Shown in pieces: positions 7,768 through 40,039 of a DNA stretch of 64,000 nt; the first letter of the stretch is position 1, and each line of letters opens with the position of its first letter. Below the pieces are notes generated by a model, which was not told the DNA's origin, did no database searches, and saw only the letters and a program-made list of their open reading frames with translations. A program made the translations under genes and the position numbers. The stretch comes from Amphiscolops sp. MND2022 (taxonomy: Eukaryota): the NCBI GenBank assembly GCA_964187785.1, contig OZ076409.1:47060001-47124000 (forward strand), read 5' to 3'.

Positions 7768-9511
7768 TGTCGCAGGCTGCCGCCTGTGACGGCACATTAA
7801 TAACGACGTCAGCGGAAAACCAAGAAATTTTCCCAGGTACTCTACCCACGTTTTAAACTTTCCCTTACTGAAATTTATTTTACTAGTTAATCACATTCGT
7901 TTTGTTTATTCAAGTGCATTTTTATAATTGTTCGTGATATTAGTCTGTTAAAATTACGATTTGGAACTATCCAAATCAGGTTGTGTTTTGAGATTTGTAA
8001 AAGGAAGTTTGGTGTATTGCAAATAGAGTGTTGAAATTAATCAAAGCGGTAACGTACAATAAGCAGGTTAATCGCGAGAAGGAAACGTGTTCAAGTAAGA
8101 AAACGTCCCTTCTCGGCGATGTAACTTTCAGTACGATTATTAGCCAATCAGAGCTTTCCTTTTGCTAATTATGAGTGCTTTATTTATGATGGCCGGATAT
8201 GGCTAATTGACTAAGCGGTGCTAATTTATATCAGTCCCCCAGTCAAATCGACGGCTTCGGCCAGTTCGAGCATAATGATACCTTGTTGCCTAATTGGATC
8301 AATACTTACGCGGAGTTATTAAAATCATGTTTTTAGTTTAAATAAATACGTTTGTGATGTTTTGGTGTTTGTATACTTTTAACTTGGATAAAGGGACAGT
8401 TAAGGCCTTTTACCATGTCTTTCATATGCGCAGTACATGTTATGGATTTGGGCCTATTCCGGCCCTGATATGCGAGTGTATTTTCGTGAATATCGATGCA
8501 GTATTAGAATTCCACACATAGTAATGCATTTCGTTTTCAGCTTAATTTGCAGTAAACTTGTGCCGGCACGTGCCTTCATTTTACATTGCCATAAAATATG
8601 CAGGCTGTGGTATTTGTTTACATCACATTTGAAGTAGGCCTAACTGATAAATTGTTTGAAGTTGCTACTTGATGACTCTGAATACCATTCCTTAAATGTC
8701 CCCCGGAAATATGTAGTTGTCGGGGATTTTCCTATGATGATTGTAAAATCCTATGATTTGTCTTGATCAAAAGTATGTAAAAAATGTGTGTGTCATCCTT
8801 CAGGGGTATAAATACCCATATCCCTGCAGGAGGACACATACTTTGTACTTCTCTCCATTTGATAAAGACGTTCATAATACAAACGGTTTCACTGTTAATT
8901 TTCCGGAATTGATAATTCAAGTCTTCAACCCGGTTCAGTCTTAATGCCTACTACAAGGAAGCAAAAGAAAGCAAGGAAATCTAGAGGATTAGAAATTCTC
9001 TCTGATATTGAAAACCTTGACATAATGTTAGGTGAAAATCACTTCAATGATACGAGGAGAGACGAAAGTCTCGATGGAACTCCCATTATAAGGCAAGAAA
9101 GTATTATAAGTAATAACTTGGAAAATGAGGAAATGGATCTCCATTCTGATCATAGAAATCTTGGAGTTGGGACTAGTACCGGGTACGACCGAAATTCAGC
9201 AAGTATAGATTCTCAAGCTGAGATCAATAAGTTGTCGAGTGAATTGAACTCTAGAATATCTAGAGAAATGGATGTAATGATGGACAGTGTTAGTTCTCAG
9301 ATTCAGAGAGCCATAAGTGACGCCATAAATAATCAGGTTTTGCCCCAGATTCAAAACGTCATTATGGCCGGTTCAGGACAGGAGACTAGAAGGGGATGGG
9401 AGAGATCTGACGAGAGACCGGAAAGTTATTCCGAAGTTCAGTGCAACGCGAAAACTAGAACTACCCTCAATAATGAACACGGTGATAAAACAAACCGTAA
9501 CGTTCTTGACA
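7768..9511 (+). mobile_element. Gypsy solo LTR (1744 bp) carrying gag N-terminus
   Basis: TGTCGCAG...TTGACA termini; 5-bp TSD AAAGT (7763-67, 9512-16); TATAAATA at 8807; ORF MPTTRKQKKARKSR starts at 8944 and runs out of the LTR end. Confidence 0.9.
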
Positions 9512-10953: not shown

Positions 10954-12620
10954 TTTGATAATCCTCTTCCTCAGAGTCCTCTTCTGTTATAAATGTTGCG
11001 TCTAAGTTCATTTCATTTCTATGAAATGGCTTGGCTGGATGTCTTAGGCCTTTCAATTTAAAGGCCTGGAGAGGATAATCTTCATCTTCAGAGTCTGAAT
11101 TCTCGTTATGAGGTGCGTGCACTCCTATAGACTTGTCAGTTTTGGATCCCGACGGTTGTATATTTTGGGTATCATTTATTTCGGACCTCGGGTTTGTTAC
11201 TGTTGAAGCACTTTTCTTGGTTTGTTATTTTTTTCAAAGTTGTATCTTGCTTGTTCTCCATTTCTTCTTTCATTTTCATAATTCTATCATTGTTCTCTCG
11301 TTCAAAGCTTTCAGTCCACGCTTGAATCTCATTGCATACTTGACTGGGTTCTGTTAATTGAAGCCTCAAATCATCACCACTTAAAATTCCTTGAATATCG
11401 GTATAAATATTAGTCAAAGTTTCATTACCTTGGTTTGGTGTATCTCCCTGTGTTTCGCTTAAACCTCTGTCAGGGGATGGTGTTTCGAACCTCATAGACC
11501 TTCTGTTTTTCTTGTTTCCCATCCTGCTCAAGTGAAAATGTTTTCACTTTAATTGTTGGGGAAGAATTTGAATTTATTCAAGAAACTTCGTCAGAACAAA
11601 TTGAAAATAAGAAACGAGATTGATTGAAAAGACTGCTTTCGCAAAGATCGAGTTCGGGTTCTTAGGTTCCGAGTGAAAGTTACTTTTCGATTGAATCGTT
11701 CCTTCGCTTGTACCCTTTTCCCCAAAAATATAAAGAATGACAAGCGTTTTTACTGACATCATTGTTTAAAGAAACTACAAATTGAGCAACGTCAAACTCA
11801 CATCATTCTATTTATATCCTTCAAATTATGATACCGCGACATCCTAAATATGATCAAGACGCTTAAGAAACACTGGAAAAGCAACCAAATGAAATATTAG
11901 GCCTTTCAAACGTTATCCAATAGCATATAGATACATGACTGCAAAACACTGAAAAAACATCTAATAATTATATTGCCCCATACACTTTATTTCTCGAACC
12001 GCAAAGTGGCGTTTGCAATATGCTAACATTGTTGCTTAAAGCGAACAGTAGTGTATATACAAGACAGCTCACACCGTATAAGTTACTTGTAGTTCTATTA
12101 TGAACAGCGAAGGCTAACATATATTTGTCAATGTATATACTTTCTTACAACGTGAAATAATATTAAAGAAAACGTAAATTACCGCATGTGCGTGTTACCT
12201 AAAGACGCATGTTTACGTATAGTCAAAAAACGCACAATGCCGCATATCCGCACAATCAATTTAGGCATAATGGCGTGTATAAGATATTTCCAAAATGCAC
12301 TTCGACGTTTATTCACCAAACAATTTAGCGTATGACGCACAACGAAATCAGAAATTCGCAAAATGAGTAGTTGTACGTCATCATTTGTGATGAGTCACAT
12401 CTATAAACAACTTCTCAATGAGGAAAACCTCATTAAATGGTTTAGAAAAGGCCCAAAATAAATCAATCACAAAGTATCAACACACAATTTACATGACTTA
12501 ATCAAAAACGTATATAAAATCAAGTTTATAAAAACTCAAAGTGCTTGTTGAGAGGTTTCGTCAGCTGCCCTTTTCGTCACAGATGCGCCACGGACCCATC
12601 ACATCGCTGTGGCTGCGACA
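10954..12620 (-). mobile_element. Gypsy solo LTR (1667 bp) with frameshifted gag N-terminus
   Basis: TSD GTTAC (10949-53, 12621-25); minus start TGTCGCAGCC; terminal CA mutated to AA; TATA at 11809-16. ORFs 11172-11531 and 10895-11122 are homologous to 48314-48884. Confidence 0.88.
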
Positions 12621-17270: not shown

Positions 17271-17392
17271 TTTGAACAAACTGATTAAATTGTACCTAAT
17301 TAGTATTCACGATTTCAGTGGAGCGATCTGTTTCATCTACTTTCGGTTTCATGCATAAAGATACCAGCCGAGTTGAAAGTCAGTGAAATGAG

Positions 17393-21238: not shown

Positions 21239-21568
21239 CTGCATTTGGTCCGATGCACGGAGAATAATACGGAAATGCAATATTTCAAAACGATGAAAAA
21301 AGCATTGCAGAAAACACGGGGGCCGAAATTTGAAAGAAAATTGTTAATTGCTGTCTGTATACAGCTAAAGCTATGCAAATTCTTTTGAAAATTTTTCCTG
21401 TAATTTTCCAAGGCTCTTCCTGCAGAAACCTTTTCTCTCTTATACTTAGCTTGTTACTGTAGATACGCCGTCGCCTCAGCAGCAAATGTACATAAATAAG
21501 CCATTTTCAGCTATTTCATTTGTCTTTTTCCTGTACCTCGAAAAAATGCTAAAATTCTGCAGTATGTT

Positions 21569-23479
21569 TGTGTTGACCGTGATTAGGGAGCAAATCACTT
21601 GGTTCAACTAGTCTATATCTATACTCCGCGTTTTCTGCATCCTCGTCGTCGGGACCACGACGCACGTTGTTAGGCGGTCTTTCTGTCAGCGTATCGATTT
21701 TAGAAGTCAGGTTTTCTATCATCTTCAGAATCTCGCGCTGTCCGACTTCCGCGTCTTTGATTCTTTTACTTACAGATTTTTCTATCTTTTCAGATAATTC
21801 CGTAAAATCCTTATCGGACAAACTAGCAGCGTTTTCAGTTCTCATGCTAGAAGATTCAGGTTCGTCTAAAGAGTTCACAGGGGAATCCCTTCTGGCTTTT
21901 CTTTTGGAGCTACGTTCTGGCATCTTACTTAGGCTTGATAATTCTCGATTTTCTTTTTTAAGGAAATAAGAGCAAGTTCTCAAGTGACAAAGTGTGACGT
22001 TTCAAGATTTTTAATTATCGTTAAACGAAAGATAATTGTTTCGCAAAATAACAAAATTCAACTAAACATGGCTTCTAGCTCGCATTGTATTTATACTTTC
22101 CATCCCGGAAATCGGGGAAAAGACACGAACATACTTCACATTTTGTTCAGTCCGGCGTCCGTCCGAGGCAGGGAAACAGGAAGTTCAGTTCCGCTTTGTC
22201 GAACTCAGGCCTTCAGCTTGTTCATGCTTTCCGAAGAAAGCACGCGCCCACTTCCGGCCTGAGTTGCGACTCCGCTTCCCTTCGCCTCCGATCTCTCGCC
22301 TTTTCAGGACGCCGAACTGAAAAAAATTATCAAGACACGCGCAATGAGTCACTGAACAAGGTTGATTAACTGCACAAATTTGGAAAAAAATGATGACAAC
22401 CAATTTTCCTTTACAAATAATTCTCTAGATTAAATAAATCAGCAACAATTTGGATGAAATTAAACCTGAATCACACATTAAGTTTTAAATGAAAAGGGTA
22501 GAATTGTTTCTACAGTATTTACGGCTCTGATTTTTGGTTAAGATCACGAAGCCTGGCCCCAGGCCATAGTCCGGGACGGACAAATTTGTTCAATGGATAA
22601 AGCAACTATTAATTATAAACAGCATCAGATACATTGTTCAGAAAGGTATTTAATGCAATTAAACGGCAACAGATTCAGGGGACAGGATATAAATGTTATT
22701 AACACTTGGTTTGATATTCAGTACTAAATCTTTGGTCCAGGCTGCGGTTCAGGCCTGTTTATAGATTAATCAAAATTTACATGTAAAAGAACGTTGTATG
22801 TGATATTTTGAATGACGATATAGTTTAAGATCATAAATAATAATCTCTTGATTCATTTCGAGACAAAATTACATGATAGCATCATCATCTTTCACTTTCG
22901 TGATTGATTTATCGTATGTAATTCTCAGGCCGCATCCCAGGACATGGTACGTGATATTCTATTAAGTTAGCACAGAAATCTCAATCGTTGGTATATTTGC
23001 ACTTGTATTGTTAATAAAACACTGCACTAGACATTAGTTCATTTACATGTATTCACTATAACGCGCGCTTGCATATTAGTTCACTGAGTTTATAATTCTC
23101 AGGCTGCCTGCCAGGCCGCCGCTTCAGTGCGAGTATTTGAGGCCGGCTGCCAGGCCTCAGTTCCGCCTTCGATTTCTCAGTTCGTTCACTGAGCGGTGCA
23201 ATTCGATTATTATTATTACATAGTATTGTATTATTATTAACTGCACAAATAGCTCCGTTATTCCGTAAGTACGTATTTATATAAGTGTACATTATTATGA
23301 TAATAATACTAATATGCATATATTTATTAATTTAACTTCAAATTTATATTGTTTAACTCCTTTGTTTCTGATTGTTTGTCCGCTGTCTATTTCCTCTTCT
23401 TTTGTTCTTTTCCCAATTTATTCTTCGAAGAGTGGGTTGTGTTTGTTGCAATACTCGCAGCTCAGGCGGGGCTGTGACA
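21569..23479 (-). repeat. 3' LTR (1911 bp)
   Basis: Direct repeat of 35260-37169; about 28 substitutions and one indel counted by eye (~98.5% identity). Confidence 0.97.
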
Positions 23480-24002
23480 GTCCTCGGCTTCTGTACCCAG
23501 TTCCCTCAGGAAGAAGAAATTGGGAAATCGATCGAATCGGGGTCTCAAATAGCGTTGGGAGATCGTCAGTTAAGGAATTGTAGGATCGCCAAGATGAGTC
23601 TGTCTCCCAATCACTTCCCGAATAGTAGCCTTCTGAGCTACTGTAGAAACTTATCGGGCTATCAACGTTGTAGTCGGGATCATCGTAAATTTCACGGTCG
23701 AATTGCCTGACCGGACTCACAAATGTGTCTTCGGGGATCACTGGGTTGTCTTGCGTGAAACGTCTGATGACTCCCGTCTCGCTTTCTGTGTTCGTAGTAT
23801 CAGCCGGCGCTTCTTCGTGTACTAGGACTACGTGGTAGTCCTGTGTTTTAATGATTTCATAAGTAATGTTAATTTGCCGCGTGGTAATTAGGTTATAATC
23901 TGGTGGCGGTGTACCGGGTCTTTGTTCGGGCTGCTGCTGTTGATCTCGTTCGAGAATGAAGACGTCTTCGTCCATTTTGCTGCTTGAATTTGGATGATTC
24001 AT
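23418..24002 (-). CDS. ORF3, 194-aa acidic protein of unknown function; spans PPT and ends inside 3' LTR
   Basis: Intact ORF with ACAACAATG start context and TATATAA ~125 nt upstream. The last ~20 codons (LSQPRLSCEYCNKH...) lie in the LTR. Confidence 0.7.
   Translation of the reverse strand: MNHPNSSSKMDEDVFILERDQQQQPEQRPGTPPPDYNLITTRQINITYEIIKTQDYHVVLVHEEAPADTTNTESETGVIRRFTQDNPVIPEDTFVSPVRQFDREIYDDPDYNVDSPISFYSSSEGYYSGSDWETDSSWRSYNSLTDDLPTLFETPIRSISQFLLPEGTGYRSRGLSQPRLSCEYCNKHNPLFEE
23480..23507 (-). other. Atypical polypurine tract
   Basis: GAGGGAACTGGGTACAGAAGCCGAGGAC directly abuts the 3' LTR TG; purine-rich but interrupted by pyrimidines. Confidence 0.5.
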
Positions 24003-24125
24003 TGTTGTAGTAAACTAAGCGTCAGTCAATTTTTAGTACAACTGATTTGCTTCGCTTGGAAAATTTGTTCACACGGTTTGTGTCAACTCCATGAATTGTT
24101 CAGCTGGCAGACTGAACAACTCTCC

Positions 24126-24132
24126 TTATATA
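24126..24132 (-). promoter_or_regulatory. Putative TATA box for ORF3 (internal, possibly bidirectional promoter region)
   Basis: TATATAAGG on the minus strand, between the divergent ATGs at 24002 (-) and 24222 (+). Confidence 0.5.
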
Positions 24133-24221
24133 GTAGATAACTTTTGATAGTAGAAATTTCCTTGCTTTACGCCACATCTTCTTTGATTTTATGCTGGTTG
24201 TTATTTTTAGATTGTTTGAAA

Positions 24222-27200
24222 ATGAGTTCAACTGAAGCTGAAAATGTTGTCTTGAGTCAAAGTCGGGCCGTCGGATTGAAGGAGAGCGAGGCCGAGGTCG
24301 AGTCTGTGGTAGAGTCTGTCGTGCAAGGTGAGCGGACAGTGGTTGCTTCTGACGAGGTAGAAAGTGGAGAGGCTGGGGATGCAGCTAATGATGAGCCCGT
24401 GGGTCCTGGATTTGGAGAGAAAGGCAGTTCGAGTGAGGACGGTGAAAGCTGCGCTGAGACGGAATCGTAACATTCAGCAACGAGTGACGGTCGTCATGAT
24501 CTCAACTACCTAGCGGACAAGAAAGGTAAGCTTTCTAGAAATTAAATGGTGGCCAGCCTTTCTAGGGTGTGTTGAACGCGTTCTTTTACTTCTACTTTCA
24601 CAGTGACTGATGATGAGCTTGACGAAGATTATGCCCCCAGTTTGTCTACGAGGTCGCAGAGCAAGAAGAAATCACGGTCCAGTCGGGTGCTTTCAACGAG
24701 TAGTGCAAAGCCTTCTAAGCGTGTGCGTTTGGCTGACGTGATTTCTGGAGCGATTCCCAAGCCTCCTATGATGGGCGACAGTTCTGGGGGAGATTTTGAA
24801 TCCGCGACAATTTCTGCATCCAAAACACTTGAAAGTAGGTAATCTTTCTCTTTCTTGTTTCTATGAAGTTTTCTTTGGGTTTTCATTTGTGGTTGTAGGG
24901 TCTACATTCCACTTCTGTATACTTCATATTCGCTTTTGTTGTAGTTGCCGATCCTTATCCTGGTTTGGGGGATTGCTCCGATCCGGAAAGTGATGTGTTT
25001 GCTGTTGAGGCTACAGTTGGGACGCCGGCCCCAGAAAGTGACGCGATGTCGGTGTTGCCTGAAGGTCTTTCTCGTCAGACACGGACACAGCACAATCGTC
25101 CAGCTGTGGGGCTCGAGCCTTCAGTGGTCCATAATGAGTGGGAGAAAGGTACAGTTTTAAGGTTTCTGTTGTACAGTGTTGCTCATTGTAGTTATGTCGT
25201 AGGTTCGTTGTATTCCGTTATGTAGTGTGTCTTGATTTGGTGAATGGTGTTGTTAACGTGTATTGTGATGTTTTAGTTGGTCTAAAGTCTGTTCCTCCGG
25301 GTTCCCCCATGGTGATGACGGCAGCTCAATGCGTCATTCTTGCACGGAGTGCGGCCCGGGCAGAGCGCCGTGAAACGTTAAAGGAGACCAAAACCTTGGC
25401 GAAGCGTAAGTAGTAGTGTGTCTTGTTGATTGTTTTTCCTGTCATCTGACTTCTATTATTTCTGGCTGTATTTTGTATTGTATTGCTTTGTTTATTACTG
25501 GCCGACTCTGTCTGTATTCTTCTGTTCTGCTTGTATTCTGGTTGTTGTAAAGGTGAGTGATGTTTAGAATTTGAAGAGTTATCACAGTTACTGAAGTCGA
25601 GGGGCATCGATGCAGAGGACCCTGGTCGGGTCATGGATCCATTGGAGGCCAAAAAGGAAAAATTGCTGGCACGAGATGAGGAGCGCGCCAAGAAGCAGTC
25701 CGAGCGACATGTATTGACCAAAGCCATGAGCAATCACCCAATCCCGAAGTTGTTTGTGAGTCGGAGGAGCGACAAAGGGCCGAACGGTTTCAATTGTGCG
25801 ATCTGTCAAAAGGACGTGTCCTTTTTATCACGTGGGCCACGGGGTATCTGGAGACACTTTAAGTGTAAAGGACACTATGCCAAGGATCGCCGTTATCGCT
25901 ACGATCATGAGGAGATGATCTTTACCGAGAAATTTGATGCCATTACCGTTGCCGAATTGACGGTGGAACAGCGTGCTGAAATTGAGCAGACTCCGCCTGT
26001 GGTGTCGGGCAAGATGAACAAGTTTTTGGAGGACGAAGTTGACGCGCTGGTCGGTGTTCCATCCAACGTGCCTCCGACTACCCTTGTAGGCTGCCTGTTC
26101 GAATTGCTGCGGAGTGGTGGGTCACAGGTGTTTCTCGGTCGTCTTTGGAATCAGTTCCGAACGACCCTGCCTGTGGAAAGTCCCTATGCTTCAGTGACCT
26201 GGAGCAAGACAGAAACGTTGGTCGTCCTTGTTCAGACCCTCTATCCTCGGGTGTTACGTCGTGTAAAGTCATGGCACGGGGACGGCCCATTCAGTTTGGC
26301 GTTGCATAGTTATTACTCCGGTGTGAAGTGCATCGTCCGTTGCTGCCCCGGTGACTCTTTGCGTGAAGTGCACCTTGTGGATGAAGATCCGAGGGATGTA
26401 GCTTGTGGGGCGGAGGTACAGTGTCTGGCCCGTGCTCTGTCGCTAGTCTCTACTCGGCGGGGGCCCGCTGCTATTCTGGGTTGCTCTCCTGTGCTTTTTA
26501 ACGCCTATGTGGACTGGTGTCGCTCAGTGGGTCGGCCTTCTCCTATCGTGGCTATTTCGTTTACTGGAGATGTATTTCGTCGACTTGTAGGTGAATCTAG
26601 CTTGGCGTGTGTGGGTGCGGTCGATCCTTTTGCTACTGTAGATTACCTGGCTCACCGTCTCATGAGGATCCGCCATCAGGCGTGGTTGCTGGATCTGCCG
26701 AAACTCCGCATGTGCCTGGAAACTGGAGTCGTGCCCTTCGCTTCATTGTGTGATGTGCTGCAAGAATTGTTGGATCACTGGCCTGATGTGAAGCTCAGTT
26801 TGTCAAATGACGTTTTCATGATAAAGAAGGTTGCGAATGTTGTGGACTTAGATTCCTTGCTTTGTTCTGATCGCTTGGGTCTCCCTCGCTTGTCGCTATT
26901 ACATGTGGTGTTGCTGTGCTTTCGCGCCAACTTCAAGAGGCTCTTTGACTCTGGTGCAAAGGATTATGCCTGTAGGAACTATTCCGACTTTTGCTTCTTC
27001 TATTGGAGCCTTTTAAGTAAGGTCAAGAAGATGAGCCAGTTGCCCTCGATCGACGATTGGTCCAAGTATATGGGTAAACCTTTGAACAGTTGGGCCAACG
27101 TGTCTGTTGGTGAGTGCTTGCAAGGTGAGCCAAGTATTCTAAAGGCATTGCGGGGTTTCGAGGACACTCCCCGGCGGGCCTTCCTTCGCGAACGCCAGAG

Positions 27201-28023
27201 CTATTTGTTGGAATTGTTGAAGCATTTGGGGTCTTCTGCCTATGCCAGTTCTCGGGTCGCTCGTTCCCTTAGTTGTCTCAGCGTGGACATGCTCTTGGGT
27301 GGCGATGCTGATTATGTAGTGGAATTATTTCAAGAACTGGTTACATGTCTTCAAGAAGCTGGTTACCTTGATAATGTGGATCGCGAGTCGTCAATGAATG
27401 AGTTTAAGTCACTAGTAGTGGATCTTTGTCAGTTATCAGCAGATTCTTCGCAGATTTTTGATGTGTTTGAGTATTTGGAGTCTGTGCGTAGCTACCAGTG
27501 TCGGATACATGTGAAAGAAGTCGTTCGTTTGGTTCGTGTTGTTGTGTGTCCTGCTCTTGAGCCCATGCCTCCGGTCGATATTTCAATCAGTGGGACTCAA
27601 TTGCCTCCTTCTGTTATCCGTTCCGGTCTGTATGCAGTTCAGTCATTCGTGGTTCATCCGAAGTTTATGTCGAACGATTTGTTGACTGTGGAGTGTCTCG
27701 CTGAATTGAAAACTAACTTGCCCGTTGGACATCAATTTTTAGTGCGCAGTTCATTTGATCCTTGGGCTGGGGTCAGTCGCCATTCCAGTGAGGAGATTTT
27801 TGCAAGCCTTTTTGGCTGTTATACTGCATATTATAATGGACAAGTTGAGGAGTGGAGGATACGGACGTCAGGTCAGTCGTCTCGTCGAGGATGTTCTGGT
27901 TCCATTGTTGCTGATGGCGCCTCGTCCGCTGCTGTTGTTGAGAGAGGATCCGATGTTCCTGGGACGTCTTCTCAAAGTCAGAAAGGGAGTAAGAACAGTC
28001 AGAAGCAAGGGAAATCTTGCTGA
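24222..28023 (+). CDS. Spliced antisense gene, exons 24222-24525, 24604-24834, 24945-25148, 25277-25405, 25568-28023 (~1107 aa); BED-like zinc finger, probably hAT-transposase-derived; one premature TAA at 24468
   Basis: Four GT-AG introns (GTAAGC..CACAG, GTAGGT..TGTAG, GTACAG..TTTAG, GTAAGT..TTTAG), all phase 1, join the short ORFs 24144, 24603, 24965 and 25225 to the 796-aa ORF in one frame. Confidence 0.82.
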
Positions 28024-28356: not shown

Positions 28357-31300
28357 TTAATTTTCTGATCTCGGACTGCCGTCTGGGCCGAGGTCCGCTA
28401 AAACCTGTAATTCTGGGCCGTTGTCCAGTCCGTCGGAAGAATGTGCCAAATTTGTTGAATTGGCTGTTAGGGCATTGTAATAGGCATATTCTGGTTTCCA
28501 ATTTGACGTCGGGTTTTTTCGAAGGTTGTAATGGGATTTCCGGGGGGATTGAGGTGCGGGTGTATTATTTTCGGGTTCATCATCGATATCAATTGGTGGG
28601 TCCTGTGTCTGGTCACTTGGGTGGTTAGGAATGATTTCGGGGTCGTATACTAGGTTAGGACTTGGGGGGCCGGGGTGGGTGGGGTCATTGATTGTTTCTG
28701 GGGTTGGTTGGATCACTTCGGGTTCGGGTAATTGTTTGTTTTCGGGTTGGTTAGGGCATTCTTTGTACAGTTCTTCCCACGCCATTGCGAAGAGGTCGTC
28801 GTGCTGTATGGTTACTTCTGTATCCTGCTGGAAGTCCTTGGGTGGGACTGTAATGTCAGGCAGCTTGTGGCTGCTTGCGAAGGGGCGTAGCCTGATTCTA
28901 TGCAAGATCTGTGTGAAATTGGTCTGGAGTTTACGTATAAGATAGTTGTTGTTGGGTAGGGTTTTGACCACGATATATGGTCCCGTCCAAAGGTATTCCC
29001 GAAACGGCAATTTCGTCGCTTGGCTATGCGCCTTTGGATGCAAAGCATAGCAGTAGTCGTTTACTACCAAGGGGTGTGCTGATGCTTTCCGGTCATAATA
29101 ACGCTTATGTCGGACGTAGGCTTGCATCAGGGCTTGTTGGCTCTGGTTGAGGATTTCTTGTGTTTGTTGTAACACTCTCTCAGCTATTTCGTGGTTGGTT
29201 GGGGCAGTGGCCTGGGGTTTAAGGCCGTACTTTAGGTCGAGTACGTTGTATGGCACTCTTCCATGGAAAACTCGGCTGGGTTCGCAGCCTAATGATGTGT
29301 GGTAGGAAGTGTTGTAATTTAATACTGCCATTGGTAAGACTTGGTGCCACATCGTTCGCCTCTCTCCCGTCATGATTTTTAGGCTTGCTTTGAGCGAGAC
29401 GTGGGTCCTTTCTAGGATGCCTATCGTCTGTGCATGTTTGGTGGTGGCATGTTTCAGTTGGATTCCGAGAATGGCTGTTGTTTGTTGCATTGCCTCCGAT
29501 ATGAACATGGATCCTTTGTCCGTGATTATCGTTGTGGGGGAATAGCAGTGTCTTGTGATGATATCTGTAAGGACCCGTGTGACAGTCTTGGTGTCGATTC
29601 TGGCGACGCTATACGCAAATAGATAACGGGAGAATACATCCATCGCTGTGCTGACTGCAGTGTATCCTCCTGAAGGGTCGTCGAAAGGGACGATGTCCAT
29701 TTGTAGTGCGTCTTCTGGGCCCATCGCTATTTTGGACATGTCGATGAGCGGGGGTGTAATGTTGGCATTTGGTATCCTTTTCGTCTGAGCGCATTCTGGG
29801 CATTGTGCAATATGGGTGGCTATTCGGGCGGCTAGCCCCGGGAAGTAGTACTTTTCGCGGCATTGCTGGATGGTTTTAGCTATACCTGGGTGTTTCCCGA
29901 ATTTGCCATGGTGGTGTTGTATGAATTCGTCAACTAGTTGCTGGGGGAGTAGTACTTGCAAGTACTTGACTTTCCCTGTATCGCCAAAATATTGTCGATA
30001 CAGGAGTCCATCTTTTATGATGATGCGGTCATCTTGTGTGAGGTATTTGGCCGCTCTGGGATCGTCGTTCAGAAGTTGGGTGTCGTACGGTTCTTTTAGG
30101 ATTTTCAGTTTGAGGTTTCTGAGGACGGGGTCCTGGTCTTGGTACGGTCTCAGACTGCGCGGGAAGATTGTGTCACTGTGGATTTGGCGCCGCTGTTCTT
30201 GCTCTGGGTCTTGGATGTTGTTGCAGACCAAGGGTAGGTTCTCGGGTTGGGAGATGGTTTGGGCGGTTTCACTCTTGGGGTCGGAGTTCTGTTCATGGGG
30301 TGTGTAGATCTGTTTCCTGGCTTGTTGTTTACGCTCCCAAATGTCTTCTTCGGTCTCAGTGTCGTCCTCTGGTAAAAAATAGAATTGATCTTCTTCATGG
30401 ATGTCGGAGGATTGTATGTTTACCTGGATCGGTGTCGTTTGAATGTCTTCTCTGATTTGGAGAAGGACTTTTTCTTTGGGGCTAATGTCTAATCGGGAGA
30501 GGAAATCGGCTGCTGTATTCATCCTTCCCGGCACATGGGCGATTTTAAAGTGAAATTGCAGTACAAAATCGCAGGCATTCCAGAGGGAGGGTGGTATCAT
30601 CTTGGTTTGGAAAAACCTGGTGACTGATTTATTGTCGGTTAAGACAATAGTCGGTTTGGATGAACCCCACAAGATGTGACTATATTCCATAAAAGCGAAA
30701 TAGATGGCTAAGAATTCTTTGGCATAGATTGACATCTTCAACTGGGATGGTGAAAAAGTTTTAGAGCCAAATGCCACTGGAGCGTAAGTCTTCCTGGTGG
30801 AGGTGATCTTTTGCTCCGGGTCTTCTTCCGTCATCAAGGCATATCCGGCATTCCTGAAGCTTGCGTCTGTCATTAGTACGTACTGCCGGTTTGGCAGTGG
30901 CTGTTTGAGCCAAAGGCCGCATGCGTTGTCTAACGATTTGTTGATAGCTTCGAAATTGGATATGAGTTCCTGATCTATCTTGACTGGCATGTCTGATTTG
31001 ATGAGTTCATGAAATGGGGCAATCTTCTCTGATAATCGGGGAATGTAGTTTCTGTAGTAATTTACGAAGCTGATGTATCTTTGAAGTCCCTTCTTCGTCC
31101 GGGGGAATTTGATGGTCTGAAGGTGTTTCTGGATCTTGTGGCTTTGGGGTGCCACCCCTGCTGGGGAAATTGTTCGCCCAAGGAATTCGACTTCCTTGGC
31201 GCCGAACTGACATTTGGCCATGGAGAGCCGGAGTCCTGCTGCGCGGATGCAGTGGAAAACTTCTCTCAAGTTGTTCTTTAACTTCTCGGGAGTGTTGGTG

Positions 31301-33453
31301 GCGATTCCAATGTCATCCACGTACTGAGCGCATTTGTCCGCCTTTATGGCCTTGTCGAGGTATTCCCTCATGAAACTTGAAAAGGACGACAATGAGCGGC
31401 TCACGCTATGGGCTAGCCTGAGGTACGCGAATGTCCTGCTGGCGAAGTTGAATGCTAGAAGTTGAACGGACTTTTGGTCTGCCATTTGCAGCACGTGGTA
31501 GGCTTGTGAACAATCAAGCTTGCAAAACAACTTCTTGCCGGCGAGGTGTTGCGCCGCGTCTGTCAGTGTGCTCACTGGATGATTGTTGTTAATGTAATCA
31601 TCAGATATCAGATTGTTGATTTTTCGGAGGTCGACTAGTAGGCGCAGGCGGCCGTTTGGCTTCCGTTGGGCGAAAATGGGGCTGGCATACTTGCTGAACG
31701 GGAGCGTGGTTATAATCCCGAAGTAATGCATTAGGCCCAATTCGACCGTCAGATCTTCTTTCAGGTTAATGGGGCAGGGCAAACTCTGTGAGTAGACGGG
31801 GTCGTCTGTTTTCGGTGTGAGTTTGATTTTGAAATCATGGTTGATTCCAATGTCTAGTCGGTGTCTTGCAAAGATATCGTTGAACTCTATGAGTATTTCT
31901 TCGATGTCTTTCTTGTCATCTTCTGAGAGTTGTGAATCGTCCCATTTGAAGCTTTGGAGGAATGTTTTTAGTTCCTCTTCGCTGTTGTTTGGGTCGAGTT
32001 TCTGGATTTCTTCCAGTTCTTTGATTTCTCGGAGAATTCGGTTCTGAATCGGGGTGTGTGTAGCGGGGTCTCCGGGGTGGTCTGGTGTGGGAAACCAAAA
32101 GTTTTGATTGTGAGATGGTTTTTCTGAGGTTTTCAGGAGCTCGTTGATGTACACCATCGCTTCTTCGGAGTCGTCTTCGGCGAGCACTTTGAGTGCTGCT
32201 GTGTTGAGTGGTTTGAGTTCTTTTGCCTCTTCAGGGGACAGGATTTTGAATTCTGCTATTGTTGTGTTTCGTTTGATGGTATAGGGTGTAGGGGTGGTAT
32301 TTGTTACTCTGATGTCAATTTTTCGGTTTGAGGCTGTTGAGATTGAACTGGCTACCACGAGGGGGTCGCCACTGCAGTGGTTGGTGGCTGGGTTGATGAC
32401 ACCGGTTGTGTCGACGTTGGATGGGATATCTGTGGAGCCTGTTATTGTTTGTGTCGTTTCAGGGGGAATAGTGAGTGGATTCTTTATTTGTACTTTGTAC
32501 AGTTTCCTGTTACGGGTATATTCGTCGGTTTCGATTGAATATGTGAGGTGGGGGAAGTGTAGCAGGCCCTGGCTCACGTCCAGGATGGCGCTGTTATTTT
32601 TAAGGAACGTGAGGCCAAGTATTGGGCCTGTCAGTCGTTTGGCCACGATAAATGTTTCCTTAAAATTCCAGTCTCCGATTTCGAATTGGAGGTTGATTGT
32701 TTTGGTGGGTGTTTCAATGTCGTTATTTGCGACTTGGAGTTTGAACGGAGGCGGTTCCAACTCTTTAACTATGTCTTTGGGGGACATTTGGAGGATTTTA
32801 TTGTAATCGGTTTCGGAGATGCAGTTTACAAGGGCGCCAGAGTCAATAAGGGCGTCCAGGGTCAAGTCCTGGAAGTCCATGGGGGCGAAGAGCATTTTCT
32901 TCTTCTTTTTGAGGGATACTGCTGAAAAGATTGGTATGCACTCTTCTTTTGTTATGGGGTCTCTCGTGAGGTATTCCGCAATCTGGGCCAGGGGGTAGGA
33001 CTGGGGTTCGTCCTGGGATGGTGTGTCATTTGCAACACCGGTGGGGGATCCAGATTGTGTATTAGTTGTGGCAGGGTTGAGGGGTCGAGGGTCCTCGACT
33101 TCGTTTCCGGTCTGCCTACTGGAGAGAGAGGTGTGAACGTTGATTTCTCTGACTGGACTTTTGTTGTTCCTCTGATATTCTGCAGTCTGCTCAGGGAGGT
33201 AGGACTTGGGAACGTCCTGTTGCGGTGTGCCGTTTGCAGCACCTGATGGGAATTCAGACTGCATGTTGGTTGCGTCAGCTATGATGTGTCGATCGGTGTC
33301 GATTTCATCTTCTAGCTGACTATTGAGGATAGTGGGTGAGAGCTGTGTCTCGTATTGAACGGAGGGTTCTAGGAGAAGAGATCTCTTTATTCGTTTGGTT
33401 TTTGGTTTGGAGAAGTTTGTCTCCGAATTGGGTGTAGGTGAGGTCAGGTCCAC
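28357..33453 (-). CDS. pol: Gypsy Pol: aspartic protease, dUTPase-like remnant, RT, RNase H, integrase
   Basis: ALIDSGA; LRLLVDLR; KLDCSQAY; YVDD; LMTDAS...KEFLAI...TDNK...ADFLSR; H-H..CPEC; D(QMDI)-D(ITDKG)-E(ILER); GPY module. Confidence 0.97.
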   Translation of the reverse strand: MDLTSPTPNSETNFSKPKTKRIKRSLLLEPSVQYETQLSPTILNSQLEDEIDTDRHIIADATNMQSEFPSGAANGTPQQDVPKSYLPEQTAEYQRNNKSPVREINVHTSLSSRQTGNEVEDPRPLNPATTNTQSGSPTGVANDTPSQDEPQSYPLAQIAEYLTRDPITKEECIPIFSAVSLKKKKKMLFAPMDFQDLTLDALIDSGALVNCISETDYNKILQMSPKDIVKELEPPPFKLQVANNDIETPTKTINLQFEIGDWNFKETFIVAKRLTGPILGLTFLKNNSAILDVSQGLLHFPHLTYSIETDEYTRNRKLYKVQIKNPLTIPPETTQTITGSTDIPSNVDTTGVINPATNHCSGDPLVVASSISTASNRKIDIRVTNTTPTPYTIKRNTTIAEFKILSPEEAKELKPLNTAALKVLAEDDSEEAMVYINELLKTSEKPSHNQNFWFPTPDHPGDPATHTPIQNRILREIKELEEIQKLDPNNSEEELKTFLQSFKWDDSQLSEDDKKDIEEILIEFNDIFARHRLDIGINHDFKIKLTPKTDDPVYSQSLPCPINLKEDLTVELGLMHYFGIITTLPFSKYASPIFAQRKPNGRLRLLVDLRKINNLISDDYINNNHPVSTLTDAAQHLAGKKLFCKLDCSQAYHVLQMADQKSVQLLAFNFASRTFAYLRLAHSVSRSLSSFSSFMREYLDKAIKADKCAQYVDDIGIATNTPEKLKNNLREVFHCIRAAGLRLSMAKCQFGAKEVEFLGRTISPAGVAPQSHKIQKHLQTIKFPRTKKGLQRYISFVNYYRNYIPRLSEKIAPFHELIKSDMPVKIDQELISNFEAINKSLDNACGLWLKQPLPNRQYVLMTDASFRNAGYALMTEEDPEQKITSTRKTYAPVAFGSKTFSPSQLKMSIYAKEFLAIYFAFMEYSHILWGSSKPTIVLTDNKSVTRFFQTKMIPPSLWNACDFVLQFHFKIAHVPGRMNTAADFLSRLDISPKEKVLLQIREDIQTTPIQVNIQSSDIHEEDQFYFLPEDDTETEEDIWERKQQARKQIYTPHEQNSDPKSETAQTISQPENLPLVCNNIQDPEQEQRRQIHSDTIFPRSLRPYQDQDPVLRNLKLKILKEPYDTQLLNDDPRAAKYLTQDDRIIIKDGLLYRQYFGDTGKVKYLQVLLPQQLVDEFIQHHHGKFGKHPGIAKTIQQCREKYYFPGLAARIATHIAQCPECAQTKRIPNANITPPLIDMSKIAMGPEDALQMDIVPFDDPSGGYTAVSTAMDVFSRYLFAYSVARIDTKTVTRVLTDIITRHCYSPTTIITDKGSMFISEAMQQTTAILGIQLKHATTKHAQTIGILERTHVSLKASLKIMTGERRTMWHQVLPMAVLNYNTSYHTSLGCEPSRVFHGRVPYNVLDLKYGLKPQATAPTNHEIAERVLQQTQEILNQSQQALMQAYVRHKRYYDRKASAHPLVVNDYCYALHPKAHSQATKLPFREYLWTGPYIVVKTLPNNNYLIRKLQTNFTQILHRIRLRPFASSHKLPDITVPPKDFQQDTEVTIQHDDLFAMAWEELYKECPNQPENKQLPEPEVIQPTPETINDPTHPGPPSPNLVYDPEIIPNHPSDQTQDPPIDIDDEPENNTPAPQSPRKSHYNLRKNPTSNWKPEYAYYNALTANSTNLAHSSDGLDNGPELQVLADLGPDGSPRSEN

Positions 33454-34124
33454 GGCTTCGATCGTGGTCCTATCGGTGAGGTTTCAAGTTGGTGGCTGTC
33501 TGGTGCCACGTCCGTTGTTGGGGATCGTATGATACCGGCTCTGATAGGGTTTCTTGGCTGATCTTTTGGTGGAGAATGGGGAGCCGTGGTATAGGATCCT
33601 TGGTTCTTGAGTATAGATTTGACGTTGTTCTGTGAGATATCAACTAGGATTTCTGTCACGTGTTCGGCATCCTGGTTGTAGTCTGGGATAGGTTGGACGG
33701 TTTTGGACCTGTGACGTGGTTCGGTGGAAATATTCATCCCTGTTTTTCTGATGTACTCTTCAAATGGCGTGCATTCCTGCTGTTTGAACGTTAGGGTTGT
33801 CTTGTCATACAGTTGAGGGTTGTAGTATGGGTCGCAGTTGAAGTCAGAGTCGTGGAAGTAGGTTTCAGGTGAAGTGCTTTCTGGTAGGGGTCGTTTAGGA
33901 GTATTGTAAGCAGTCGGGTTGTCAAGATACCACTGAGGATAGTCTTTCTTTGCAGTGTTTTGGCGATTATATTTATTGAGCTTGTGAATCTGCCATCTTC
34001 GCTGCCAGTCGAGAGATGGTTCTTCATGTCGCTCGGTGTTCCTTTCGTGGTCATAGGAATTTGGGGGTTCAGATGTTGTGTACTGTCGGGTTTCGACGGT
34101 GTCCCCAAATCGAAGATGTGGCAT
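33444..34124 (-). CDS. Pol N-terminal extension (in the -1 frame of gag; separated from the rest of pol by a probable 1-nt deletion)
   Basis: Directly follows the slippery site; its frame overlaps the pol frame at ~33444-33485. Confidence 0.7.
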   Translation of the reverse strand: MPHLRFGDTVETRQYTTSEPPNSYDHERNTERHEEPSLDWQRRWQIHKLNKYNRQNTAKKDYPQWYLDNPTAYNTPKRPLPESTSPETYFHDSDFNCDPYYNPQLYDKTTLTFKQQECTPFEEYIRKTGMNISTEPRHRSKTVQPIPDYNQDAEHVTEILVDISQNNVKSILKNQGSYTTAPHSPPKDQPRNPIRAGIIRSPTTDVAPDSHQLETSPIGPRSKPWT

Positions 34125-34136
34125 ATTTAGTTTTTT
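34085..34136 (-). other. Putative -1 programmed ribosomal frameshift signal
   Basis: TCA AAA AAC TAA gives the heptamer A-AAA-AAC just before the gag stop; downstream TTCGA...TCGAA stem with a GGGG loop and nearby CCC. Confidence 0.75.
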
Positions 34137-35614
34137 GATTGGCTGAGCTCCTGGGTTTGGTTTTGAGGTTGAGTGTTCTGCGGGAGCATGGGTTGGTAGC
34201 CCGTTTGGCTATTTGTTTGGTTGTTAAATGGGTGTTGATGTACTGGTGTGTTGTCTGGGGGGTACTGACCTTGTGTATTCTGTGGCAACGGGATGTTATT
34301 CGGTGAAGTTGCTTTAGGGGTCTTCCACCATTGGGGTCTGTTTGCCCAGTTGGCGCCAGAATAACAATCCTGTGTCGTTTGGCTCTTTTTGCCGCAGGTT
34401 TCACATGGGTTTGTTATTTTAGTCGGTGCCCTATTGCCTCGGTTGCGGGCTTCCCGAGCAGTTTTCCGGCAGTTCTTTATTACATGTCCTGGGTTGCCAC
34501 ATCCGAAACACGGGCCCGCTGGTTTGGGTGGATTGGCGGTTTGTTGTGGGGCGTCTTGTACATCGATTTGGTGTACTCCTGTTATGTTTGTTTCGCTTGG
34601 GGCCAGGAGTCCGTTTAACTCCATCTCGCGTTCTAGGTGTTGGACCATCAGGTCGTATGACTCTGTCTCGAGTCTTGCCTGGTTAAGGACTCGTTTTAAG
34701 TGCGCTGGCATTTTTGCATAGAATGAGGTTTCTATGAACTTTGGGGCGTCGTCGCCATATGCCTCCTGTGCCAATTTCTGGTATTGCTCCAAGAAGTCTT
34801 GGAAGGTTTGGCGAGTCGGGTCGAATTAAAGTTGTTCCCACTTACATCTTGCGGTGGCTATGGATTGTGGGCGAACGTATCGTCTTCGGAATGTGGTAAT
34901 GATGTCGTCTAAACTGGCGCGGTTTGCGTCTGTCATATTGCGATACGTCTGTAGGGCATCGCCTCTCAGGAGGGAGTGGAAGTAGTGAATTTGCTCTTCC
35001 TCTGAGATATTTGGATATACTTTGAGGCTTGTCATAAACAGGTCCTCGAAGTGTTCGAATTTGTCGTTGCGGCCATCAAATGTGGGCATGGTTGTTGAGA
35101 GTGCCTTCGGGAGTCTGGGCAGTCCCGCGCTCTGTTGTGTGGCATTCTTCAGGGATTCGAGCAATTTGTCCACGATATCGTCTGGATATCTCATGTTGGG
35201 CGGGGGTAGACTTGATGATCGGGTGGGTATGTCCTGGGTTGTGGTAACTCCTGTCACCATGTGTTGACCGTGATTAGGGAGCAAATCACTTGGTTCAACT
35301 AGTCTATATCTATACTCCTCGTTTTCTGCATCCTCGTCGTTGGGACCACGACGCACGTTGTTAGGCGGTCTTTCTGTCAGCGTATCGATTTTAGAAGTCA
35401 GGTTTTCTATTATCTTCAGAATCTCGCGCTGTCCGACTTCCGCGTCTTTGATTCTTTTACTTACAGATTTTTCTATCTTTTCAGATAATTCCGTAAAATC
35501 CTTATCGGACAAACTAGCAGCGTTTTCAGTTCTCATGCTAGAAGATTCAGGTTCGTCTAAAGAGTTCACAGGGGAATCCCTTCTGGCTTTTCTTTTGGAG
35601 CTACGTTCTGGCAT
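34127..35614 (-). CDS. gag: Gag (starts within LTR; in-frame stop at 34826-34828)
   Basis: PTFDG..FEDLF..LLRGDAL capsid-like region; zinc knuckles CFGCGNPGHVIKNC and CETCGKKS(Q)TTQDC. ORFs 34826-35674 and 34127-34792 are in the same frame. Confidence 0.92.
35242..35259 (-). other. Primer-binding site
   Basis: TGGTGACAGGAGTTACCA immediately follows the 5' LTR ...CAACACA. Confidence 0.8.
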
Positions 35615-37169
35615 CTTACTTAGGCTTGATAATTCTCGATTTTCTTTTTTAAGGAAATTAGAGCAAGTTCTCAAGTGACAAAGTGTGACGTTTCAAGATT
35701 TTTAATTATCGTTAAACGAAAGATAATTGTTTCGCAAAATAACAAAATTCAACTAAACATGGCTTCTAGCTCGCATTGTATTTATACTTTCCATTCCGGA
35801 AATCGGGGAAAAGACACGAACATACTTCATATTTTGTTCAGTCCGGCGTCCGTCCGAGGCAGGGAAACAGGAAGTTCAGTTCTGCTTTGTCGAACTCAGG
35901 CCTTCAGCTTGTTCATGCTTTCCGAAGAAAGCACGCGCCCACTTCCGGCCTGAGTTGCGACTCCGCTTCCCTTCGCCTCTGATCTTCCGCCTTTTCAGGA
36001 CGCCGAACTGAAAAAAATTATCAAGACACGCGCAATGAGTCACTGAACAAGGTTGATTAACTGCACAAATTTGGAAAAAATGATGACAACCAATTTTCCT
36101 TTACAAATAATTCTCTAGATTAAATAAATCAGCAACAATTTGGATGAAATTAAACCTGAATCACACATTAAGTTTTAAATGAAAAGGGTAGAATTGCTTC
36201 TACAGTATTTACGGCTCTGATTTTTGGTCAAGATCACGAAGCCTGGCCCCAGGCCATAGTCCGGGACGGACAAATTTGTTCAATGGATAAAGCAACTATT
36301 AATTATAAACAGCATCAGATACATTGTTCAGAAAGGTATTTAATGTAATTAAACGGCAACAGATTCAGGGGACAGGACATACATGTTATTAACACTTGGT
36401 TTGATATTCAGTACTAAATCTTTGGTCCAGGCTGCGGTTCAGGCCTGTTTATAGATTAATCAAAATTTACATGCAAAAGAACGTTGTATGTGATATTTTA
36501 AACGACGATATAGTTTAAGATCATAAATAATATTCTCTAGATTCATTTCGAGACAAAGTTACATGATAGCATCATCATCTTTCACTTTCGTGATTGATTT
36601 ATCGTATGTAATTCTCAGGCCGCATCCCAGGCCACGGTACGTGATACTCTATTAAGTTAGCACAGAAATCTCAATCGTTGGTATATTTGCACTTGTATTG
36701 TTAATAAAACACTGCACTAGACATTAGTTCATTTACATGTATTCACTATAACGCGCGCTTGCATATTAGTTCACTGAGTTTATAATTCTCAGGCTGCCTG
36801 CCAGGCCGCCGCTTCAGTGCGAGTATTTGAGGCCGGCTGCCAGGCCTCAGTTCCGCCTTCGATTTCTCAGTTCGTTCACTGAGCGGTGCAATTCGATTAT
36901 TATTATTACATAGTTTTGTAATATTATTAACTGCACAAATAGCTCCGTTATTCCGTAAGTACGTGTTTATATAAGTGTACATTATTATGATAATAATACT
37001 AATATGCATATATTTATTAATTTAACTTCAAATTTATATTGTTTAACTCCTTTGTTTCTGATTGTTTGTCCGCTGTCTATTTCCTCTTCTTTTGTTCTTT
37101 TCCCAATTTATTCTTCGAAGACTGGGTTGTGTTTGTTGCAATACTCGCAGCTCAGGCGGGGCTGTGACA
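35260..37169 (-). repeat. 5' LTR (1910 bp)
   Basis: TGTCACAGCC...CAACACA; direct repeat of 21569-23479. Confidence 0.97.
35779..35786 (-). promoter_or_regulatory. LTR TATA box
   Basis: TATAAATA ~165 nt upstream of the gag ATG. Equivalent boxes at 22088, 8807, 11809, 37893 and 48028 in related LTRs. Confidence 0.6.
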
Positions 37170-37356: not shown

Positions 37357-39718
37357 TGTTACGACTTATATCCTGGTCGTTTTGCGTTGAGCTTATCCTA
37401 ACTGATCTAGTAGGGGTGTAGAAACTCCTAGGTTCATTTTCCATTCCCTCTTCAACATTCTCTCTAATATTCTCTCTTGTTTCAGGTTTCAAGAGTTTCA
37501 TCATTTCCTTTTGGGATTCAATTAAGAGATTCTTAATCTCGGAGGTAATTTCCTGCTTCAGAGATGCTCTCAAACTTTCAAGAAGGCTATTTTCAATTCT
37601 GGGGGATTTTGGTTTTGAAGGCCCCGCGGTACTAACGTCTTGTTCTGGAAAACAAGGATCTTCTCCTACTACTGGTGAAACGAAACCATCTATTTTCCTG
37701 TTGGATGTTCTTTCTCGTCTGACTTCGAGTTGTAGACATTTCGATGAAGAAAAGATTTTTCTGATGATTTGAATTTCTTTTCAAAGTTTTCAACAAAGTT
37801 GAGTTAGAAACGAGGTTGAGACAAACAAGTTTAAAGCAACTGATTATCACAAGAGGCAAAAGACTGAGTCCCTTAATCAACAAGTTTCACCGTATTTATA
37901 CCCTTCCAGCATCATTTGATAACAACTATAATCCCTAATTTTCTTCGAACAATTAATCATTTCCAGTTTTATCGATGAAAAAATCACGAAGTTCCCAAAT
38001 TTGTGTCGATATTTCGTCAATTTTTGAGACACGGCAAATTTAATCTAGCATTAGTCATCAAACATGATCATATGATTTCATCCCGGCGTCCTTTTGCTTC
38101 CTCCCGAGCAGGAAGTAGATATTACTTCAGTTTGTCAAACCGGAAATAATTACCTGTTTTGCTGCTTCAGTTCGCGGGAAATTGACGCTGAGATGACGCT
38201 GACGTGAACAACAAATACCTGATTTTGAAATTCGGTTTGATCAAAATGCTATGACTAATTCCAAAGCAGGATTATTTAAACGATGCTAGGACGATATTTT
38301 ATGAATTTGGACTCATTCTTTTTGTTAGGAATAGAATTAACAAACATGGTATTGAGACAATACACCAATAACAAATTTAGCATGTCGCGACAAGTGCGAC
38401 AAATTCCATAAAAGTAACAGCAACATCTGTTTGATAGCAACGGCAACATAAAGGGTTTAATGGATAGCAACAATGAACTGGTATAGAAATATGATCACAA
38501 TCATAATTATAGAATAGCGTCTGGAATCATCGAGTACAAAAATGCAAAATATACCGAAATACATCTTCTGTACAAAATACACTTTAATTGAGGCTGTAAA
38601 CTGTGACTTCTTGATTATTCTACTATGAAATCTCGTAATAAAAGTGGCTTATGCAAGAAAACTCCCTTATTGTTAAGAATACATGACGGTTAATTGACGC
38701 GAATTTGAACTATCCTATACGCGTTGATTACGCCTTAAGTCAGATCTTTAAATTGTGGAAATATTAGCAATACGCTTGTTTTACAATTTGAAATAGCCTG
38801 CAATTATCTTTCCCTAGGAAATAACGGCCTTAGTGCGATGAAAAACCTTGACTGGTGTAGTGAATTCATTCATTTTGTCCGATTTCATAAATTTGTCAAC
38901 GTCATGTCGACGTGTTTTCTTTGCAGACTTTTGAGCTTCATAAACTTGTCAACGTCATGTTGACGAGTTTTCTTGGCAGAGTAGAGATTTTGACTATTTA
39001 GACGCAATGGTGGCGAGTATTTTAGAAATGAGTCTCTCGCTAGCTGCCGGAGCAGTGACGTCACAATGGCGGTAAATTGGAATGATTTCTAGTAATGTTA
39101 TTAGTATAGGCGGAATATTGGAATGATTTTCTGGTACGCATATGCGAGGCAGTGACGTCAATTGGTATACCTTCAAGTTTGTCTGCCTCTTACTGACGGC
39201 AAATATTCAAGCATTCTTATTTTCTCCGCTGCCTTGTTTACTCAGCGTAATATTGACGTCCTAAATCACACTAATTGTCATTCAAAGCGTAGTTAAACTG
39301 CCTTTCTAAGAAAAGGCTTAAATCCTTCGACGTGCCATCTCAATGTATTTTTCATTTTAGATCTGATTTATGTTCTTTCGGGAGATGACTTTGACTACGT
39401 CTTCATTTAGATTAGGCTATGGTTTCTTTATATCGAAGCGTGTTTCAATTTAGTTTTCAGGTGGCGAATGTTATTGACTTGACCTGACAAAAACGTCTCA
39501 ACCGGAAATGTGAGAATCATTTTGGCATATTCATTCTTTGTAGCTAGTTTCATTTGAAGATTCCGTTGATCAAACGTATTTTTGTTTTTTTTAGTCACAG
39601 TTTATTTGTTACTTTTAATAGTTAAAGTAAGCTTTTGCGAACCTCGCAGTGCAGCCGTGGCCTCTCCCGAAGCCAACTTTTAAACACCCACAACCCAGTC
39701 CGGGAGCGGACTGTGACA
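37357..39718 (-). mobile_element. Gypsy solo LTR (2362 bp) with decayed gag N-terminus
   Basis: TG...CA termini; TSD ACAAG (37352-56, 39719-23); TATA at 37893; MSTTRSQTRKN (37739) and a coiled-coil fragment running to the LTR end. Confidence 0.9.
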
Positions 39719-40039
39719 ACAAGCTGCTTGTTTGAAAACACTTCCGCTTAAATGATCATCCAAATGTACTTTATTCATCAAATTTCAGCTAGGTTTTCAT
39801 CCAAGCGATCAATGAAAATCAATTTTGCACATACAATACATTGATTAAAAAAACGTCGCCAGGGCGATTTTAAGCTCGATTTTCCCGAAATCTGTTGAGA
39901 ATTGTGAAAAACATCAGATATAAAAGTTTCTTAGAATTTCATCTAGTTTATATTAATGTTTTTAAAATTTTTAGGACAGAAAACGAAAAACAGCAAACAA
40001 ACAGCAGACTCCAAACAACCTACTGGGGATTCATACCAT

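Follow-up and report, generated by a model that had tools for sequence, protein, structure and literature searches.

An accessory open reading frame that runs into the long terminal repeat of Ty3/gypsy retrotransposons in Amphiscolops

Extra genes at the 3' end of LTR elements

Lentiviral nef and the bel/tas genes of foamy viruses are 3'-end accessory genes that read across the polypurine tract (PPT) into U3, and the foamy viruses also have an internal promoter. The reading frame described here, ORF3, resembles these genes in its 3'-end position and in crossing the PPT into U3, and its candidate internal promoter recalls that of the foamy viruses. However, the carrier is an env-less Ty3/gypsy element, and the likeness to nef and bel proposed in a first-pass annotation of this DNA holds for position but not for sequence, since no sequence or profile relation was found. 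Nef is marked by an N-terminal myristoylation glycine and the Nef core homology. ORF3 starts MNH, with no N-terminal glycine, and neither family A ORF3 nor the representatives of families B to E matched any Pfam family at E<=1. By these features, ORF3 is neither Nef nor Bel1/Tas.

Additional open reading frames between pol and the 3' LTR have been described in plant and fungal Ty3/gypsy elements, including Grande, RIRE2, Retand TRP28 and Boty (PMC7264820, PMC11963269), and the extra frame of Grande is reported to encode a nuclear protein expressed from its own promoter (PMC11963269). The plant and fungal frames are like ORF3 in being conserved, in lying in a long region between pol and the LTR, and in their proposed regulatory role. 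Those discussed there are antisense, or env-like with membrane segments, whereas ORF3 is soluble, lies in sense orientation, reads into the LTR, has a spliced antisense gene head-to-head with it and belongs to an animal element; it has no Pfam match to TRP28. Among animals, LTR retrotransposons of bdelloid rotifers carry non-env ORF3s that encode a GDSL esterase, a DEDDy exonuclease, transmembrane proteins or coiled coils (PMC5408684). They are family-specific, exchangeable and non-env, like the ORF3s here; they are recognisable enzymes or membrane proteins, whereas the present ORF3s are disordered, motif-bearing, free of known domains and overlap the LTR. In the titles and abstract beginnings searched, with subscription papers mostly outside the coverage, none described an ORF3 that overlaps the LTR in an animal gypsy clade, nor a retrotransposon accessory protein with a SUMO-interacting motif. 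Extra frames between pol and the 3' LTR are known from plants, fungi and rotifers.

The window, that is, the whole stretch of 64,000 nucleotides analysed, contains a family A element with both LTRs and parts of related families (Table 1). Comparison of the window with itself showed that the two direct LTRs of the family A element are 98.5% identical; they have TG..CA ends and are flanked by a 5-base target site duplication, AACAT. The minus-strand pol frame comprises 1708 codons, and the nearest solved relative of its reverse transcriptase (RT) is that of Ty3. The LTR pair, the duplication and the order of gag followed by protease, RT, RNase H and integrase identify the carrier as a Ty3/gypsy LTR retrotransposon. 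The gag frame (35692-35260, minus strand) opens about 400 bases inside the 5' LTR and runs across the position of the primer-binding site, so that the LTR is protein-coding at both ends. A similar frame at the LTR end is present in other families.

The flanks of the element (17237-21568 and 39777-48775) match another locus (L098/L032, G000:C8) at about 98%. That locus is a segmental duplicate that lacks both the family A insertion and the insertion at 42668-47847, and shows the pre-insertion state. The latter insertion is an LTR-like element in a family B LTR, with 932-base repeats that are 98.5% identical and an 829-codon minus-strand ORF without Pfam match. Inspection by eye of 18855-20140 (minus strand) also showed pieces of a reverse transcriptase frame of the non-LTR (LINE) type.

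Table 1. Features of the window discussed in the text
Feature	Position	Strand	Remarks
5' LTR start, family C	1..1295	-	element extends left of the window; copies have a 301-aa ORF3
Solo LTR, family E	7768..9511	+	1744 bases, 5-base duplication at flanks; full copies have a 261-aa ORF3
B-like LTR start with tail frame	12576..12620	-	
3' LTR, family A	21569..23479	-	1911 bases
ORF3, family A	23418..24002	-	194 aa; net charge -19, mostly polar, predicted largely disordered
LTR-coded tail of ORF3	23418..23479	-	20 codons and stop; CxxC at 23459-23448
PPT position	23480..23500	-	assigned by location alone; read through as codons
Non-coding block, candidate internal promoter of ORF3	24093..24142	-	TATATAA at 24132-24126
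Antisense hAT-transposase-like gene	24222..28023	+	intron-containing; large exon 25561-28023; head-to-head with ORF3
pol	28357..33483	-	protease, RT, RNase H, integrase (Pfam); Ty3/gypsy order
gag region	33444..35692	-	frame starts inside 5' LTR; in-frame stop interrupts window copy
5' LTR, family A	35260..37169	-	1910 bases; 28 differences from 3' LTR
LTR start, family D	39320..39718	-	full copies have an ORF3 of about 250 aa
Family B ORF3	41277..42095	+	about 342 aa in intact copies; in-frame stops in 5' part of window copy; enters LTR starting at 42052

The frame across the LTR junction and its conservation

Family A ORF3 runs from an ATG at 24002 through 194 open codons to a stop at 23420-23418. 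It enters the 3' LTR at 23479 as GGA CTG TCA (G-L-S), and the same junction, claimed at 42048 by the first-pass annotation, is indeed found there, where the plus-strand ORF crosses as GGA CTG TCG. The tails at 42052 and 12620 differ by six synonymous and three replacement codon changes and share the position of the stop, and the frames at the LTR starts at 7768, 1295 and 39718 also read as described. Some of the wording needs amendment. The frame given for LTR starts beginning with leucine is correct, but where the LTR is 5' or solo the 'L' codon takes its first base from the flanking DNA, and full copies of the 7768 family have a valine at the junction. A tail is present at every LTR start, but at 5' and solo LTRs it is a passive copy, there because the LTR is duplicated. 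What is informative is the sequence upstream of the junction in full-length copies: in the 1295, 39718 and 7768 families it is open for 200-316 codons in the same frame. Likewise, ORF3 does read through the PPT position, but 'PPT' is a designation by position, since the tract at 23480-23500 is weakly purine-rich, and in the 39718 (D) and 7768 (E) families the sequence before the 3' LTR is not purine-rich.

The weakness of the polypurine tract, seen at 23480-23500 and at the junctions of loci L102, L128 and L148, is most evident in families D and E and is perhaps due to coding double duty. In the window copy and several subfamilies, an AATAAA hexamer (23417-23422, minus strand), possibly an early poly(A) signal, encloses the ORF3 stop codon; the 206-codon type is an exception.

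All five LTR families for which an internal junction was located (A to E) have an ORF of 200-350 aa that crosses it in the same frame. The elements of families C, D and E are about 14 kb each, and 20 loci were sampled for each; those without an internal junction are 5' or solo LTRs. A long frame in the same phase was found in 8 of 9 junction loci in family C (299-316 codons upstream), in 3 of 4 in family D (229-238 codons; one frame stops right past the junction) and in all 8 in family E (at least 200 codons). Most frames among the 142 scored matches of family B have about 340-355 codons. For the B-like family at 12620, 20 loci yielded no internal junction; the LTR start could be placed in 11 of them, each with at most 39 open codons upstream. 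Identity of the RT-RNase H region between families is 63-82%. An unrooted RT tree of eight rows places C beside D and, less firmly, B beside E; it is too small to show the order of gains and losses. Two short metagenome contigs have this junction in the same frame, showing that the arrangement exists outside the Amphiscolops assembly.

Conservation of the frame was assessed in two independent data sets, near-identical copies and diverged subfamilies, and both point to purifying selection, as expected for the selected third gene that had been proposed. A DNA search with ORF3 gave 551 candidates, of which 40 were scored and the best 30 fetched (93-100% identity). The full frame is kept in 26 of these 30 (L010, L015, L016 and L027 are broken). 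Variants found in at least two of the 30 copies, most of them going back to the active lineage, comprise 23 synonymous and 20 replacement changes and no stops (dN/dS 0.28), compared with a dN/dS of 0.63 and four stops for private variants. Four control frames gave 1.09-1.41, and the antisense frame that has third positions in common with ORF3 gave 0.54. Only two indels fall inside ORF3; the flanks have many, of non-triplet length.

The protein search gave 966 candidates; of the best-scored 150, a set in which intact copies are over-represented, 127 are free of internal stops (counted by eye). It also found subfamilies at 61-75% identity. For family A, 16 sequences were compared, namely the window copy and 15 of 20 fetched loci (63-69% identity to the window copy; L066, L070, L077, L078 and L079 were dropped for stops, frameshifts or altered starts), and for family B 17, the window copy and 16 of 20 (L092, L094, L097 and L098 dropped). 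Pairwise dN/dS was about 0.19 overall and 0.38 in the LTR codons past the first four in family A, and 0.10 and 0.17, respectively, in family B, all approximate values because synonymous sites are near saturation (pS 0.55-0.72) and pairs are non-independent. Every length difference in the family A alignment is in frame. The CxxC of the family A tail is invariant in all 16 sequences, and both of its cysteine codons vary synonymously only. We conclude that ORF3 is almost certainly a real, selected accessory gene, and the codon comparisons indicate that its LTR-coded tail is selected as well. In E-type elements roughly the first 20 bases of the LTR hardly vary at the DNA level, implying that part of the constraint on the tail acts on the DNA end.

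Protein properties, the SUMO lead and the antisense gene

The description of ORF3 as non-env, without signal peptide or transmembrane segment, agrees with its hydropathy: the maximum over 19 residues, used here in place of a dedicated predictor, is 0.37 in the window copy and at most 1.44 in 47 ORF3s. The polar fraction is 0.59-0.69. The proteins are acidic in all families (-12 to -19 in family A) but C, which is net positive and has a basic run, PKKKKKF. No obvious basic nuclear localisation signal was seen in family A ORF3. A homologue search with the family A alignment gave 68 matches, all unnamed ENA proteins; an Atlas search gave no usable match, and 20 cluster look-ups returned no names. 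Structure prediction, suggested in the first-pass annotation, did yield a model of family A ORF3, but one of low confidence (mean pLDDT 39.7), with a possible small beta sheet, also of low confidence, at residues 47-83. Conservation in family A is highest in residues 121-130 (0.97) and 151-160 (0.99).

That the frames represent one homologous gene, as had been implied, is supported for B and E (hhalign probability 92.6%), while no homology was detected for A against the others (<2%). Every pair involving A, C or D scored below 5%, although a remote relationship between disordered proteins may escape profiles as shallow as these. Either new proteins refilled the slot or the disordered sequences diverged past recognition. 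By eye, short motifs (D/E-V-F-V/I-V/L-E, ERGP, RDQAVD and SDWETD) recur among ORF3s that cannot be aligned (P0242, P0151, families D and A), which suggests a mosaic of common linear motifs.

The ORF3s of families B and E have in common a C-terminal cysteine-rich domain, with 273 library relatives at E<=0.001. Cys22, Cys25 and Cys83, the last of them coded by the LTR, persist in 76, 77 and 77 of 80 rows, respectively, and a histidine lies upstream in 41 of 58. The predicted model has pLDDT above 87 over residues 21-60, with two helices after the CxxC. The cysteine cluster may form a zinc site completed by the LTR-coded cysteine, and all five tails (A to E) have a cysteine within the first 12 LTR codons. 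Searches by fold against PDB and viral models found nothing similar to the domain at E<=0.001, the best VIA Z (6.0) being to generic helical pairs, and its profile had no significant match among solved structures.

The N-termini of the B, C, D and E proteins have a hydrophobic core followed by serine and acidic residues, for example VIDISSDEE in C. They fit the phospho-regulated type of SUMO-interacting motif (SIM), a four-residue core with at least three V, I or L and adjoining acidic or phosphorylatable residues, in the definition given in PMC12751080, which also treats SIMs as loose motifs. A strict phospho-SIM-like pattern, written after the sequences had been viewed, matched 13 of 25 library proteins of at least 240 aa, compared with a mean of 0.05 in full shuffles and of 0.23 (maximum 2) in local shuffles. 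By family, it was found in 12 of 15 B, 7 of 8 C, 1 of 3 D and 4 of 5 E proteins. Among 240 other long ORFs of the same loci there were five matches; two were B ORF3s that had passed the filter, and three, all in the antisense frame, were rejected as one likely intron-exon boundary artefact.

In family A the strict pattern was found in none of 16 copies. Looser cores occur at residue 14 in 15 and at residue 58 in 14 of the 16, but they go only weakly beyond chance, at least two cores occurring in 4.4% of shuffles, and they are less conserved (0.86) than the two best blocks. The core at residue 58 lies within a predicted beta hairpin of low confidence. Host SUMO (residues 12-94 of P0258), whose nearest named relatives come from two acoel worms (81% and 78%), was modelled with residues 1-70 of family A ORF3 and scored 0.02 against a mark of 0.34, the fold of the partner being uncertain, and the model was given no weight. 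The motif of families B to E may bind SUMO, a proposition we rate slightly above even, while SUMO binding by the looser motifs of family A is doubtful. The SUMO link is accordingly offered as a lead for the clade, and as a weaker one for family A ORF3. SIM-bearing viral regulators include ICP0 of HSV-1, K-bZIP and LANA of KSHV and BGLF4 of EBV (PMC12751080). The B to E proteins resemble them only at the level of the motif, a hydrophobic core followed by serine and acidic residues, whereas family A ORF3 lacks the strict form. SUMO and SIM-bearing effectors act in piRNA-guided silencing (PMC8490990), and SUMO acts in the silencing of endogenous retroviruses (PMC10144533). These roles make counter-silencing our leading guess for the function of ORF3.

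A homologue of the antisense gene's protein resembles transposase-type proteins of the hAT/DUF4371/FAM200 kind (Atlas, scores 0.90-0.93); Pfam and PDB sequence searches with the protein were blank, and its profile had no significant match among solved structures. The gene was detected at 19 of 20 loci in A, at 16 of 20 in B and in the two copies sampled for each of C, D and E, and in all five families it is head-to-head with ORF3. In the window copy an in-frame stop interrupts the first exon. In 17 of 18 family A sequences, 221-234 bases separate the start codon of ORF3 from that of the antisense gene. Within this spacer, a block 140-90 bases upstream of the ORF3 ATG has 95-99% identity to the window copy, against 53-89% in adjoining 10-base bins (18 family A sequences), and the TATA is matched exactly at the block position in 13 of 16. 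Family B lacks that TATA, but a TCAGT-type element is often present some 60 bases upstream. The conserved TATA block suggests an internal promoter and agrees in position with the subgenomic start near 24100 for which the first-pass annotation proposed to look, and the simplest reading of the spacer of about 220 bases is that it probably serves as a divergent promoter for both genes.

Candidate functions and significance

We tentatively favour, at a little under even probability, the view that ORF3 is a nuclear accessory regulator of an env-less Ty3/gypsy element, likely acting against silencing. It would likely be transcribed from its own internal promoter within the spacer and yield a small, soluble, mostly disordered regulator. 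The protein would help to keep the element transcribed via host chromatin or the SUMO machinery, acting through short conserved motifs in an acidic chain and through a cysteine cluster that would bind zinc and be completed by LTR codons. That the function of family A is common to B to E is assumed from position, homology being undetected. It is rather unlikely, although conceivable, that the antisense transposase-derived protein supplies the DNA binding and ORF3 the effector surface. More speculative still is a picture of an env-less clade organised like complex retroviruses, in which one divergent promoter would drive a counter-silencing module of two parts, a disarmed hAT transposase to locate element DNA and a fast-changing, SUMO-docking ORF3; the effector would have been replaced several times while the frame across the LTR edge was kept, and the LTR would supply one zinc ligand.

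Two other functions are unlikely, to a similar degree, and have to be weighed against a counter-silencing regulator. Foamy-virus Tas is a transactivator or cofactor of its own promoters. ORF3 could likewise simply serve the element's promoters as an acidic transactivator or cofactor, with no special link to SUMO or silencing, as its acidic disordered chain with spaced aromatic residues (in family A), the conserved promoter-like block and the adjoining candidate DNA-binding partner would allow. Activation, however, does not need a SIM-like motif in four otherwise different families, and family C is net positive. Alternatively, ORF3 could act after transcription, in RNA export or stability, in particle assembly or as a cytoplasmic suppressor of small-RNA silencing. 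The best-conserved blocks of family A are not its SIM-like cores, the protein has no clear basic nuclear localisation signal, and its tryptophans lie in a Gly/Ser-rich stretch that we presume could be Argonaute-hook-like; but this stretch is not common to B to D, and a nuclear site of action is indicated by the SIM-like motifs and by family C's basic run.

The remaining readings concern what kind of sequence ORF3 is. A real gene whose LTR overlap is incidental, the tail being held only by DNA constraint on the integrase attachment end, is very improbable. The LTR terminus does fix the first codons, and the near-invariant bases of E-type elements fit this, but beyond the first four codons dN/dS stays low in A and B, the cysteine codons vary only synonymously and the LTR-coded cysteine persists in 77 of 80 diverse B/E proteins, so that this reading is largely refuted. 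The place of ORF3, after pol and ahead of the 3' LTR, is that of env, yet an env-like protein or small fusogen for cell-to-cell spread is more improbable still given the low hydropathy, polar composition and lack of Pfam matches. A chance open stretch in conserved non-coding DNA would account for the absence of named relatives, but it has almost no probability left, being refuted by the codon pattern: the synonymous excess is specific to the frame, no stops occur among common variants, and indels are in frame.

Accessory genes that overlap U3 are thought of as a retroviral feature, and to our knowledge little is known in animals of counter-defence proteins encoded by retrotransposons. The many young copies found here present a selected, unnamed gene at just this position, in several versions that look unrelated, and place the LTR end under a triple constraint as priming site, integration end and protein code. 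Four of the versions have a motif that points to the SUMO step of host transposon silencing. With these ORF3s, whether env-less retrotransposons have proteins dedicated to fighting back becomes a matter for simple binding and reporter tests.
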